Below, piece after piece: positions 36,001 through 42,000 of a stretch of 64,000 nt of DNA. The stretch lies in the NCBI RefSeq assembly GCF_057098645.1, contig NZ_CM169472.1; one strand, 5' to 3'. Positions within the stretch are counted from its first letter, which is position 1; every line of letters begins with the position of its first letter. The position numbers were made by a program.

Positions 36001-39000
36001 ATACTTTTACCGTCTGCCGGTACCGGTATTTTCGCGACCGCATCATTCACCGCCTTCTGCAGAACATCCGGATCGTAGTCACGACCGTCGCGCGGAACAG
36101 GAATATGGCTCACTGCCTCTTTCACCATCTGCTCAATCATCGGACGCACATCATCGGGGGTGATACTTTTGCCGTCTGCCGGTACCGGAATATTCGCAAC
36201 CGCATCATTCACCGCCTTCTGCAGAACATCCGGATCGTAGTCACGACCGTCGCGCGGAACAGGAATATGGCTCACTGCCTCTTTCACCATCTGCTCAATC
36301 ATCGGACGCACATCATCGGGGGTGATACTTTTACCGTCCGCCGGTACCGGAATATTCGCAACCGCATCATTCACCGCCTTCTGCAGAACATCCGGATCGT
36401 AGTCACGACCGTCGCGCGGAACAGGAATATGGCTCACTGCCTCTTTCACCATCTGCTCAATCATCGGACGCACATCATCGGGGGTGATACTTTTACCGTC
36501 CGCCGGTACCGGTATTTTCCCGACCGCATCATTCACCGCCTGCTGCAGTACATCCGGATCATAGTCACGACCATCACGCGGAACAGGGATATGGCTTGCT
36601 GCGTCCTTCACCATCTGCTCAAGCATCGGACGCACATCATCACCCGTCACGCACTTCTGTAATACCACAGACTGAGAAGCCAGTTTTTCTTCAAACGTTT
36701 GTGCCTGCGCGGCTATTTTCTCCTCAAATGTACGCTGTAAATCCGCCAGCACCATGGCGAATTCTTCGCCCAGTGCACGAATAATGGACAGTTCCCGTTC
36801 CGTCATTTTCGCAGTATCCCCCTGAACATCGCTTTCACCGCATCATGCTCTGTTTCACTGATTGCCTTATTACCGTCAGATGCGCCATCAGGCAGTTGTG
36901 CTGAGACTGTTTTCCCGGACGACGCGAACGGATCCTCACGGGCATCACGACGGGACAGCGCCTCCAGACTGTAGTTCTGCTGCTGAAGATACAGTGCATC
37001 ACCGCCGGCCAGGGGCGGCAGGTTCTCACGTTTACGGGCCTCATTGGGCGTCAGCAGCGTATTTTTCACCGACTCACCCAGCGTTTTCATGCGCCGTTCG
37101 CTGTCCATTCTCAGCAGCGTGGTGACGTCAAACTCCGTGCTCTCGTTTTCCCCCGTTTCCAGCGCCTCATCCAGTAACAGCTCAATGGACTCAATCAGCG
37201 TCTGCAGACACTGGGAATAATACTGCTGCTCCAGCGCCTCCACGTTATCACTGGAGGGAGGTTGTCCCACACCAATCTTGTAGGCCGGGACACGGAACAC
37301 CGAACAGACAATTTCAGCGGTCATTTTCAGTTGTTCCACCGTCTGCGCATCCACCGGTGAAAACGTCGTGGGGTTATATTTCGCCCCGTTGCTCAGAATC
37401 GCCGTTTTCCCCGCATTTTCGCCGGTATACCCGCTGTCCCAGTTGCTCTTCAGTTTTTTCGCATTTTCTTCCGTTATACTGCCGGGGATCTCAATCACCC
37501 CGGACGGCCTGCCGCCATTTCTGAAAAAAGACGTTGAATTTGCCTGAATATGATGCCCCTGCGTGGCAGCCAGCCCGGCAGCATACACCGGCGGCAGCCC
37601 CACAAGCGGATGAAAAAAACAGTTAAACCGGTCGTGGATCACTTCCCGGGCAGGCACCGTCACCGCCTCCGTGATCCCGCAGTTCCGGTCCGGCGTGATG
37701 CGATAGAACACCTCGCCGTCATCCGCCACCAGAGGTTCAACCCGGCTCCAGTCCAGAATACGCAGTTCTTTGATCTGCCCACGGGAGTTACGGATTTTCA
37801 GCACCACCGTATTGCCGTGACGCAGTTTGGCGTTCAGCCACAGTTCAAAAAACTGGATACGATTCTGCTGTGCATTGGGACGACGACAGAGACGGGCAAT
37901 ATCCCCCTGCCGTTTTTCACGGCGGATCCCCTGTGTATCGGTCTGCATCAGGCGCAGCCGCATTTTGGCGATATCCTGGGATATCAGCGAAATGCAAGAA
38001 AACACCGCATGAAAGGAGAGGACACTTTCCGGATCGGCTTTCACTCCCTGCTGCCAGGCACCGGCAAAAGGCTCAGCCACCGCCTGAAACAGGCTGGTCC
38101 AGCCCACCTCTTTTACATCACGTCCTGATTTCTGGTTTTTTCGGGGTCGCCGCAAAAGGTTCCACATTCGCCATGCTCCGCATCACGTTTCTTTTTCTGA
38201 CCTGCCGGACGTCGCGCTGTGATGTACTCCGCCTTCCCCAGGCGAACCAGCACCTCCGCACACGGCTGTGCCACATCACGGATATCCCCGGCCCGGGCAT
38301 CATGCGTGCCCTGCAGATACTGGATTTTTGCCATCAGTTACTGCGGGAAGCTAGCGCCTCCCGCCCTCCTCATCAGACTCAGCCGCCGGACGCAGTTCCG
38401 TAGTTCACACCGGTGATCACAGCCACCGCCGCGGTACGGCGACGACGCCAGTTGATCCAGCGCTCCGCACGGATGGCCACGCTGCCGGTCTGGAACATGG
38501 AGACCAGCTCCACCGGTGACGGTGTGCTGCTGTCGCTGGTCGGTTCAGACTGCATCTCCAGTGACGCTTCACGGGACATATCCACCGCCACACCACCGTC
38601 ATCCGCCAGATAAATATCCGGCGCATTCACCAGTACCAGCTGGTCACCCACATACTGGGAGACAATCACCGGCAGCCCCTGGAAGGTCCCGCCCAGCAGG
38701 GTCATGTCCGGATATTCCTTCTGCCCCAGCGCATTTTTACGCATGGACAGCGCCAGGGCATTCGTGCTGGACATCAGCCAGACCGCACCGGTGGGCTGCA
38801 GATTTGCCGTCACAAACTGGCCAAACGCGGCCTCGGCATCCGCATCCGGATTACCGCTTGACGCCGTGCCCTTCACATCATGGGTGATGGACGCAGGGGA
38901 GACATCTGCCACCGCCGCTTTTTTCGGGTCCACAAAGTCTGTATCCAGACGCGCCACCACAGCTTCTGCCAGCGCATTACGGACCAGTGCATCAGCAGCC

Positions 39001-42000
39001 GGACTGGAAAAACGGATCAGCTCTTCCGTCAGTACCGCAATGGCCGACACCTTCGCATGACTGAAGGTGATGGACTCAAAATCAAACTTCGTCAGGGGTC
39101 TGGCCTTACCCTCCCCCACCCAGCCGGCAGCTCCGCCGGACACCTGGGCATGCACACGGATATTGAACGGAACCTGACGAAGGGCCGGGATCCCCCCCTG
39201 ACCAAATCGCCCGATAATGGTCTGCGGACGCAGGTAATCAATAAAGTCCTGCGCATATTCCTGATATTCAGACAGGCTGCCTGCCCACTGTGGGTCCGTG
39301 GTGGTCCCTGCCCCCACCGCCGATTTCAGAACATGATGCAGACGGCTGTCATCCGGATACTGACGGCGGGCCACTTCCAGGGCTTCGGAGCGGACACCTT
39401 TAGCCGCGGCCAGCGATTTGGCAAAACGTGCAAAACCAATCCCCTTATCCAGTTTCTGCTCCACACGGATCACCGGCGCAGAGGCCACCGTCACCACGTC
39501 ACCGTTACCAGCCTGTTTCACCGGCTGTGCCGTGGCGGCCTTACCGGCTTCCAGTTCACGCAGGCGCTTCAGATGCGCATCCACCTGACGGATTTCCGCC
39601 GCGGTGTTGTCGTAGTGCTCCTCCTCCTCCACATCCAGCGTGCGGCCTTCTTCTGCGGCTTTAGTCATGATCTCCTCCAGGGAGGCTGCCAGCGCCGCAC
39701 GCTTGTTTTCAAAACTTTTAATCTGTTCACCAATATTCATTGCTGACTTTTCCTTATGAAAAAGGGTTTTTGACTGTGCCGAAGCGCCGGCAGAAGATGC
39801 TGTTTTCACCACCGGTTTCCGGTTGCCGGACGCGGCAGAAAACGGTCGGTCGAAAGATTTAATGGTCCGGATGGTGCATTCCGCATTCGCAGGAACGGTG
39901 ACGGCAGACACCTCCATCAGTTCCCAGCGCAGAAAATGCATTCCGCCCCCGTCCAGAAAGGTGTATTCATGAGCCCGGAAGCCCACAGAAAGCCCCCTGA
40001 CCAGCCCGGTCTTAATGGCTGCCCATGCCTCATCCAGTCGGGCTGCCAGTTGCGACGGCATATCCGGTACGGGCTTCACCAGCGTTGCCGTGATTTCCAG
40101 CCCTTCCCTGCCCCGACGCACCGTACACTGGCCTACCGGGCGGGAATGGTCATGCTGCCAGAGAAACGGGATCGCACTGCCGAACTCCGCCCCCTCCGGC
40201 TCCAGGATGTCACCATCCCGATCCGGAGAAGGCGTTGACGCAATCCCGGTGATCACCCGTTCATCCTCACTGAAGGATTTCACCGTCAGCAGGGAACAGG
40301 CCCGTTTAAGAGTCACATCAGCCTCCTGAAAATAAAAAAACCGCCGGAGCGGTTCGTGATGGTTACAGTGTGAACAGGGTTATATGAAAAAAACCGCATA
40401 TTCTTTCTTTTTCGGTTCCGGGTTGAGGGACATCAGGGAGACCGCATTGAACAGCGCCATCAGCGGGTCAATTTTTCCCCGTCCACTGGCCTGTTTGGTG
40501 ATAAGAATGGCGTTACCTTTAGGCTCCACCCGGGCATTGCCGACACACCAGGCCATCAGGGGCTGGTCACCGTGAATCAGCACCCCTTCAGCCAATTTGC
40601 GCTCGGTGGTTTTGATGGCCCCACCCAGTTTCCAGCCCTGGCTTATCCCCACCACAATTCCTTCAGGGATCCCGGCTTCCGCCAGTGAATCCAGAATCTG
40701 CCCCACCCCTGACGGGTCAATACCGATATGGTCCAGTAACTCAGCCTCATGAATGCGACGCACATATTCCGCCACTTCCGCCGTGTCATCCCCGACACGC
40801 CGGACAATGGTCATATCTCCACAGGCAACAAGATCCTGAAAACGGGATGCCTCACTCTTCCGTCTGACCACCGCGGTTTCATGCGCCCAGGCATGGCCCC
40901 AGCCCAGCCATTCGCGGGTTTCCCTGTCACGGCCAATCACGTACATTCCCAGCAGATCATCCAGGCCCCCGCCGTCAATCCCCACCGTCACCACATCAGC
41001 GCGCTGCAGGATATCGTCCAGGCTGACGCGCCTGCCCTGCTGCTCCCAGAAATCCGCACCCGCCCAGCGGTCAGAACGCAGGGCAAGACCAATTTCCACA
41101 TTGGCATGTTTTGACATGAAGCCACGAAATGCTTCCTCACCAGCCTCCCGGGCTTTACGGTACTCCCGGTACAGAAAAGCCTCATCCACCGAATAACCGA
41201 GATTCGGGTTAACCATGGCGAGGTTTTCCATCAGCAGGTGAGCCCCGCTTTCCACCATTTCAGGAGGATGCTCAAAAATCACCGGCAGAAAGTGCGGATC
41301 ATGAATTTTGCCGTCACGGACATCCCGGGCATACTGCAGTTTCTGTCTGAACACCCCGGCGGGCGGTTCATTCGACTGGGTGGTCGTATACACCACAAAC
41401 CCTTCCGGACGGGAGGCAAGCCCGCCGATGGCTTCACGTAGCATGTCTTCCGCCTTGTACTGCTTGCCAAACAGCCACAGTTCATCAATCAGTGTCCCCA
41501 CGGACTTGATACCGGACACCGTATTCGGATCGGCTGCCACCACCTTCAGGGTGGTGTCCGTCACCCGATGGGTGATGGTCCGGATATGTGTCTGCACCTG
41601 ACAGAGGTCATCCAGATCATCGTCCCGTCGTACCATATCCCTGGCAGGGTTGAAGGCGTTAGCCGCCACCTCCACGGTCGGGGCCAGAATGGTGTAGCCC
41701 GCCGCCTGCCGCCAGTTCAGTAACAGCGCCGTCATCATGATCCCCGCAGCCAGCGTGGACTTACTGTTTTTCTTGGGGATAAGGATAAACACTTCCTTGA
41801 TATGGCGAACACCGGTCTGCGCATCGTAGGAGCCAAACAGGGCCGCCACCAGGTCAAACACCCACGGTGCACAGGACTCCCCGAATGTCGGGCTACCCGG
41901 TGCATCCACAATTCGCAGTTGTTTAAAAATCGCCAGTGCATGTGCAGCCTGGTCCGGATAAATCGGAGCCGGAATAATCGACAGCCCCTTTTTCAGGCGC

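Follow-up and report, generated by a model that had tools for sequence, protein, structure and literature searches.

The stretch of DNA analysed here, 64,000 nucleotides (nt) of contig NZ_CM169472.1 in NCBI RefSeq assembly GCF_057098645.1 (hereafter the window), carries a prophage head module in which one open reading frame (ORF; 38379–40316, minus strand) encodes prohead protease and major capsid protein as one chain of 645 amino acids (aa; 69.2 kDa). The best explanation of the locus is that it forms the core for head assembly in a rearranged HK97-family head module that is very common among lambdoid prophages. Within that explanation, comparative sequence signals suggest that the ORF is probably a nested gene with two products: the full-length chain and a capsid-only chain of 453 aa (48.4 kDa) that would start at an in-frame ATG, Met193 (39738–39740, minus strand). 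We also lean, though less firmly, towards a wider proposal in which a Shine–Dalgarno (SD) sequence and ATG, nested in this way across a very large family, would supply bulk capsid precursor together with a minority of protease-tagged subunits, the capsid itself dosing and encapsidating the protease. The fused gene is already known from numerous deposited and annotated records. Only for the nested internal start did we find no description, and it is possibly new.

Domain organization of the fusion protein

An earlier note, made from the sequence alone, had read the 645-aa ORF as an HK97-type protease joined to a capsid protein, with a 454-aa portal protein encoded downstream, and had worried that portal and capsid might be swapped; among the refutations it named were two separate genes emerging once the sequence was corrected. 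Both ORFs are recovered exactly in an ORF listing of the window, within a late-operon head module that runs uninterrupted on the minus strand. The reading of the larger one as protease plus capsid holds: hidden Markov models (HMMs) from Pfam and NCBIfam, an AlphaFold2 (AF2) model and Foldseek all agree on it. One ORF encodes, in this order, an S78 protease, a disordered linker, a delta-like scaffold segment and an HK97-fold shell.

In Pfam, the protein matches Peptidase_S78 (PF04586) at aa 48–152 (1.2e-8; 35.8 bits, cut-off 21) as well as Phage_capsid (PF05065) over aa 386–635 (1.1e-14; 55 bits, cut-off 24.2). NCBIfam adds major_cap_HK97 (TIGR01554) at aa 204–584 (5e-22; 78.5 bits against a cut-off of 27.5) and proheadase_HK97 (TIGR01543) at aa 48–154, the latter with 46.6 bits, under its equivalog cut-off of 59. 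Because PF04586 lies above its cut-off and TIGR01543 below, membership of S78 holds at the level of the family and not at that of the equivalog. The PHROGs profile phrog_617, ‘major head protein’, matches the protein along its full length (4e-258). The AF2 model, built from 87 sequences with a mean predicted local distance difference test (pLDDT) score of 84, divides the chain into a compact, beta-rich domain (residues 18–154), a disordered stretch (155–190), a helical hairpin (195–262), a short low-confidence stretch (268–277) and a C-terminal domain from about residue 280 to 645.

The protease domain (aa 18–154; 39855–40265, minus strand) resembles HK97 gp4 and is modelled with pLDDT above 90. 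It is 29% identical to gp4 in the region aligned by BLAST, and its predicted catalytic residues are His55 (codon 40152–40154) and Ser110 (codon 39987–39989). Ser110 aligns with the serine of the gp4 motif GMSVGF (GxSVGF), while His55 lies one residue off the gp4 histidine in the BLAST alignment. When 150 divergent fusions were aligned, His55 was found in 150 of 150 and Ser110 in 149 of 150 non-gap sequences. Purifying selection therefore acts on the protease part. The linker that follows (aa 155–192; 39741–39854, minus strand) varies in length, is gappy in alignments and has pLDDT below 50 at residues 155–190.

The helical hairpin (aa 195–262; 39531–39734, minus strand) consists of two helices, 195–223 and 229–262, both modelled with pLDDT above 90, and TIGR01554 matches from aa 204. 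It is predicted to occupy the place of the HK97-type delta (scaffold) domain and is called delta-domain-like here. The shell domain (approximately aa 280–645; 38382–39479, minus strand) is the part matched by PF05065. Direct sequence searching of the PDB gives weak capsid matches only, the best being to Bxb1 at 0.0028, so structure prediction was needed to recognize the fold. With Foldseek, the C-terminal domain matches the capsid proteins of Bxb1 (5e-15) and HK97 (1ohg, 1.3e-10, target-normalised TM-score 0.64), and also those of D3, T5 and others. The masses calculated for the full chain, for residues 193–645 and for residues 278–645 are 69.2, 48.4 and 39.1 kDa, respectively.

A proposed internal start at the scaffold boundary

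The case for a second product comes from 77 full-length copies of the gene, 76 on viral contigs plus that of the window. All 77 have an ATG at the boundary of the scaffold domain, despite the hypervariable linker around it. Among the 150 divergent fusions, 122 have a methionine within four residues of the point where the conserved helical domain sets in (M-N/K-T-I-A-E-Q-I..), 1–3 residues ahead of it, and the exceptions mostly have Val or Leu. In the window, the SD-like sequence AAGGA (39751–39755, minus strand) stands 10 nt upstream of the Met193 codon. Across the family, AAGGA(A) or GGAGGG is found 6–10 nt before the ATG, and the residues encoded there differ (KG, KE, QEG, EEG, LEG and PEG). 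That the SD nucleotides are kept while the codons differ points to selection on the RNA rather than on the protein.

The energetics agree. The duplex of the internal sequence with the anti-SD has a median energy of −6.2 kcal/mol, compared with −2.4 kcal/mol at other in-frame positions, and it is at −4 kcal/mol or stronger in 71 of the 77 copies. This matches the strength of the annotated starts, for which the median is −6.1 kcal/mol. The 60 nt of mRNA around the ATG fold weakly, with a median of −9.4 against −17.4 kcal/mol, and belong to the least-structured decile in 56 of 77 copies. The window's own Met193 region is among the least-structured 1.7% of the windows of its ORF, and its GC content is 28% versus 60%. 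The boundary also marks a start in relatives whose two parts are separate, and in them it carries a stop codon or a short gap. Two relatives (L046 and L051) have a stop codon directly before the boundary ATG, and in three others (L202–204), as in five stand-alone capsid proteins (P0196, P0229, P0256, P0259 and P0267), the capsid gene begins at exactly this methionine. A conserved in-frame internal start preceded by a ribosome-binding site, such as a nested gene with two products calls for, is present in the family, and these features combined are, judged from sequence, hallmarks of a functional initiation site.

If both starts are used, ribosomes at the upstream AGGAGG-N5-GTG would make the 69-kDa protease–linker–delta–capsid chain, and ribosomes at the internal AAGGA-ATG of Met193 would make the 48-kDa scaffold–capsid chain, a canonical HK97-type capsid precursor. 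The upstream SD (40322–40327, minus strand) lies 5 nt before the GTG (40314–40316) and has a duplex energy of −10.3 kcal/mol. Long and short chains would co-assemble on the portal via their identical capsid parts. Co-assembly through the shared part would deliver the protease covalently inside the procapsid, without the separate targeting tail of HK97 gp4. After assembly, the protease would cut off itself, the linker and the delta-like segment, leaving a shell protein of ~39 kDa and an empty cavity for the DNA.

One long chain or two products

A different account of the same ORF is that only the 645-aa chain is made, as an all-in-one polyprotein. Each subunit would then carry protease and scaffold and be trimmed after assembly, as is usually assumed for the fused gene of Gifsy-2, and the internal ATG and SD would be a relic of an ancestral, separate capsid gene or a signal for a translational pause between domains. 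This is rather unlikely, although it has several things to commend it. The ORF runs without a break and its own start has a strong SD, and the second product is deduced entirely from comparative sequence signals. Single composite protease–coat genes have been described in actinophages (PMC5513430) and in Gifsy-2 (PMC12315714, citing Effantin 2010); the Gifsy-2 description weighs by the same token against a nested start in the window. It is difficult, however, to see a relic keeping its ATG in 77 of 77 copies, its SD in 71 and its weak structure in 56, in lineages less than 50% identical and with a linker that varies freely. The SD is held at the level of nucleotides as the encoded residues change, and a pause signal needs no ATG at a start-like spacing.

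Further points count against the nested gene. The internal SD of the window is a moderate one (AAGGA, spacer 10 nt), equalled in score by 15% of the positions in the ORF. By itself this SD is not statistically unusual; the argument for nesting rests on conservation across the family. Nor is an excess of the short form evident, because the upstream SD is the stronger of the two, though it serves a GTG. An ancestral start signal could outlast a gene fusion for some time, and SD-like motifs within ORFs have also been proposed as pause sites. The abstract of Effantin 2010 reportedly makes no mention of an internal start. The mature N-terminus, with its cleavage site, and the ~39-kDa mature capsid are what we infer from the disorder of the AF2 model at residues 268–277. 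In the searchable literature, which covers older phage papers thinly, we found no description of an internal start in protease–capsid fusions, and nothing specific on this module or on phage BP-4795. The Pfam, NCBIfam and PGAP (the NCBI annotation pipeline) annotations consulted take the fusion ORF as one product.

A third possibility is that the fusion is an artefact or a product of decay, in which an error of sequencing, or the loss of a stop codon from a defective prophage, would have joined what function as two genes. A few rare relatives are indeed divided into two genes at this boundary (L046, L051 and L202–204), and PGAP does call one region of the prophage frameshifted, namely the portal gene and the next gene. 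The ORF is uninterrupted, at ≥80% coverage, in 1243 complete E. coli genomes and also in phages that can be induced, for example 1717, 2851 and BP-4795. Homologues of the same length and with 73–78% identity occur across many genera, and the catalytic residues are invariant. Phage phi330, a member of Pankowvirus, the genus of 1717 and 2851, makes infectious siphovirus particles (PMC12502783), a link that holds at the level of the genus. The paper on phi330 includes virion mass spectrometry, without a peptide map for that phage (PMC12502783). Artefact or decay is extremely improbable on these grounds, and a refutation by two genes in a corrected sequence falls away, since the same uninterrupted ORF is present in so many genomes and genera.

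Relation to known fusions and nested genes

HK97 provides the closest well-known comparison. The fusion shares with HK97 gp4 and gp5 the S78 protease family, the serine motif, the capsid fold and a helical, scaffold-like segment at the N-terminus of the capsid protein. Both phages also have an HK97-type portal, connector, head closure, gp10-family and tail terminator proteins, a major tail protein and the G/T genes. They differ in that HK97 has two genes located after that for the portal, whereas the window has one ORF located before it. The head proteins of HK97 are 23–29% identical to those of the window, with the capsid part undetectable by BLAST. Unlike gp4, the protease of the window has no free C-terminal targeting tail, and unlike HK97 the window has an extra gene for a fibrous protein (X) after that for the portal.

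Genes in which protease and capsid are fused have been met elsewhere. The ‘tripartite capsid gene’ of Gifsy-2 is also found in a lambdoid prophage and also joins protease, scaffold-like middle and coat in one gene (Effantin et al. 2010, Virology 402:355, cited in PMC12315714 and PMC8538268). Membership of the Gifsy-2 type was considered and rejected, as there is no ClpP or Phage_cap_E match in Pfam or NCBIfam, the matches being to S78 and to PF05065/TIGR01554. Gifsy-2 is reported to use a ClpP-like protease and a lambda gpE-like coat, together with a gpD-like decoration protein. The fusions in the window and in Gifsy-2 are independent, analogous rather than homologous.

The same kind of protease–capsid fusion is found in Arthrobacter phages of clusters AM, AU and AN and in Rhodococcus phage RRH1 (PMC5513430), in a different sequence family, and ‘major capsid and protease fusion protein’ is an established function name in SEA-PHAGES. 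A model for such proteins, NCBIfam NF045541 (‘prohead protease/major capsid protein fusion protein’), was likewise rejected for the window. It gives 53.2 bits against a cut-off of 525 and covers aa 49–262 only. The protein of the window is of the same kind as the known fusions and stands outside their sequence families.

For the proposed pair of products, the parallels are the nested assembly genes of other viruses. In lambda C/Nu3, a long protease form and a short form share a C-terminal assembly part. The same logic, with a long protease form, an abundant short form and a common C-terminal assembly part, is found in herpesvirus UL26/UL26.5 and would apply to the gene of the window; sharing that part sets the dose of the protease and targets it. 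C and Nu3 have been described as nested assembly genes (PMC5513430), and in the nested protease–scaffold and scaffold pairs of herpesviruses the short form is ~10-fold more abundant (PMC11565193). In those systems, however, the shared part is a separate scaffolding protein, whereas in the window the capsid protein, which has a scaffold of its own built in, would be the shared part.

Gene order as a family trait

The order of genes on the minus strand is HNH endonuclease, terminase small subunit (terS), terminase large subunit (terL), 645-aa fusion, 73-aa ORF, portal, 461-aa repeat protein and gp6-like connector, followed by the neck and tail genes. The earlier note had placed the portal gene downstream of the fusion, rather than between terL and the protease, and HMMs and synteny confirm this. 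To judge how general the order is, we turned to IMG/VR, which was scanned with a profile of the fusion and gave 80 loci ranging from 97% down to ~44% identity. The order terL, fusion, portal is found wherever the flanks are present, and the genes that come next are, in most of the loci, an X-like one and that for the connector. The unfused relatives (L202–204) have the order terL, protease (209 aa), capsid (465 aa), small gene, portal, X-like gene and connector. The canonical order of the HK97 reference, terL, portal, protease and capsid, was not encountered in the window or in any of these 80 relatives. Since the order is conserved in the family, it is an old trait and a stable signature of a large HK97-like sister lineage, and not a local rearrangement or an artefact.

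Larger fusions are found too. Two divergent cluster representatives of 1091–1094 aa (P0123 and P0131) have an AAA ATPase domain fused to the N-terminus of the protease–capsid ORF. Such an ORF stands in a phage-like context at 3047–6331 of locus L205, in the order terL, a NikA-like gene, AAA–protease–capsid, small gene, portal and a collagen-like gene.

The portal and fibrous protein X

The 454-aa protein (36803–38167, minus strand) is unambiguously an HK97-type portal. It matches Phage_portal (PF04860) at 6.8e-81 (272 bits against a cut-off of 39) and portal_HK97 (TIGR01537) at 2e-106 (356 bits against a cut-off of 112), and it is 28% identical to HK97 gp3. The HMM searches that the earlier note had recommended as a check therefore divide cleanly, the S78 and capsid families matching the 645-aa protein and the portal families the 454-aa protein. 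A swap, in which the 645-aa protein would be the portal and the 454-aa protein the capsid, has practically no chance of being right, as portal HMMs match the 454-aa protein only, protease and capsid HMMs match the 645-aa protein only, and the AF2 model of the latter has the HK97 fold.

Near the 3′ end of the portal gene lies a run of five G residues (G5; 36818–36822, minus strand) that resembles an SD for the downstream ATG at 36804–36806. With G5, as in the window, the portal has 454 aa and its stop codon overlaps the next start (ATGA). With G6, as in phage 2851, the portal and X are fused into one ORF of 859 aa. In IMG/VR, G5 is present in 76 contigs and G6 in 41, and the alleles are mostly lineage-stable, with both found in only 2 of 61 flank haplotypes. 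In distant relatives the two genes are generally split, the stop codon of one overlapping the start of the other, and fused forms recur (1102 aa in L025 and 1246 aa in L026). Given lineage-stable alleles and an ancestral split ATGA state, programmed frameshifting at the G-run of the portal gene is not needed to explain the data, though it may still occur. The PGAP label of ‘frameshifted portal pseudogene’ for the locus of the window is probably an over-call.

Protein X (461 aa; 35421–36806, minus strand), whose gene always lies between those for the portal and the connector, begins with a long helix, continues with a 54-aa repeat (162 nt) present in 4.7 copies (tandem repeat 35887–36641) and ends in a CBM5/12-like domain, as judged from AF2 and Foldseek. 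In its family, CBM_5_12 is present in 21 of 31 members and Collagen in 10 of 31. The stalk is made of the 54-aa repeats in the window and of collagen G-X-Y repeats in other lineages. Protein X looks like a carbohydrate-binding fibre that is tied to the portal genetically and sometimes covalently, and it may be a fibre associated with the head or the portal.

Neighbouring genes and the mosaic joint

Upstream of the fusion, the HNH endonuclease gene (42892–43257, minus strand; Pfam HNH 2e-6, phrog_589, ‘HNH endonuclease’ in PGAP) precedes the terminase genes. terS (42038–42601, minus strand) matches Pfam Terminase_2 and phrog_641 (2.6e-68), and terL (40380–42041, minus strand) matches Pfam TerL_ATPase and TerL_nuclease as well as phrog_9 and phrog_7622. 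A consensus scan of the 63 nt that separate terL from the fusion gene picks out a terminator-like hairpin with a T-run (40338–40355, minus strand) directly before the AGGAGG. A T-rich tract upstream of the SD of the fusion gene is found again in relatives, and in HK97 a putative terminator separates the portal gene from that for the protease.

Between the capsid and portal genes lies a conserved 73-aa ORF (38113–38334, minus strand; phrog_829, 1.4e-38) that is annotated by PGAP and overlaps the start of the portal gene by 55 nt. Matches to it at the same position were found by tblastn only in closer, apparently enterobacterial, relatives. Distant relatives have a small gene of unrelated size in this slot (76 aa in L202 and 116 aa in L205). 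After gene X comes the gp6-like head–tail connector (adaptor Ad1; 35098–35424, minus strand; PF05135, TIGR01560, phrog_40).

The neck and the proximal tail are much closer to HK97. Identities to the HK97 proteins are 44% for head closure, 75% for the gp10-family protein, 48% for the tail terminator, 67% for the major tail protein and 63% for G. The distal tail genes M, L, K, I and J are of lambda type, and HK97 itself also has lambda-type distal tail genes M/L/K/I/J. The earlier note had described the virion module as mosaic, with a lambda-like tail downstream. A mosaic joint does exist and the distal tail is of lambda type, but the joint is not one between an HK97 head and a lambda tail, as the neck and proximal tail are HK97-like. 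On sequence identity, the joint falls between the connector and head closure genes, and there a divergent, rearranged HK97-family head meets an HK97-like neck and tail.

The G–T frameshift suggested earlier is plausible. The slippery heptamer AAAAAAG (32801–32807, minus strand) stands at the end of the tail chaperone gene G (32798–33172), immediately before its stop codon, which fits a −1 frameshift as in HK97; the PHROG profile phrog_14766 also spans G and T. The major tail protein (33178–34023, minus strand), which has the 67% identity to HK97 gp12 given above, ends in an Ig-like (Hoc-like) domain, and its ORF as listed extends 43 codons further upstream than PGAP has it. Tail genes L and K are separated by a moron-like insertion, consisting of an anti-repressor Ant gene (phrog_245; 26555–27601, minus strand) and a neighbouring gene for an Arc-family DNA-binding protein.

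Distribution and annotation

The E. coli PEC240 chromosome (NZ_CM168014) contains a sequence 100% identical to the window. About a quarter of the complete E. coli genomes, 1251 of 5426, carry the module, with up to seven copies per genome. The head module is found at six places in the PEC240 chromosome. Co-resident lambdoid prophages with near-identical head genes offer ample scope for recombination. The module also occurs in 95 phage records, mostly of phages converting to Shiga toxin (Stx) types Stx1a, Stx2a and Stx2c, including the long-tailed phages 1717 and 2851 (genus Pankowvirus) and BP-4795. The records of 1717, 2851, BP-4795, Stx2a_F349 and the WGPS series are 95–97% identical to the window and represent the same element.

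Beyond E. coli, two-domain homologues of ~644–648 aa with 73–78% identity are found in Salmonella, Enterobacter, Klebsiella, Serratia, Kosakonia, Pantoea and other genera. The search returned 2,696 homologues, and among the 120 listed all the full-length proteins (~644–648 aa) are fusions. An exhaustive HMMER search of representatives of clusters formed at 50% identity gave 11,530 relatives, of which 1,166 have E below 1e-30, which amounts to more than 1,100 clusters at that level. The best 150 of the 11,530 representatives are mostly full-length fusions of ~630–680 aa.

Identical or near-identical loci carry annotations such as ‘phage major capsid protein’, ‘major head protein/prohead protease’ and ‘portal protein’. 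The fusion gene is variously named ‘major capsid protein’, ‘prohead protease’ or ‘head maturation protease’. The annotated loci differ in naming only, apart from the portal and gene X, which some treat as one gene, others as two and others again as a pseudogene.

The fused module itself is thus ordinary: it has long been annotated and resides in clinically important Stx phages, and the practical value of the present description lies in annotation. If the nested start is real, it would give a simple account of how the copy number of the protease and its encapsidation are managed when protease and coat are encoded in the same frame. What holds for lambda C/Nu3 and herpesvirus UL26/UL26.5 would in that case extend to a capsid protein itself.

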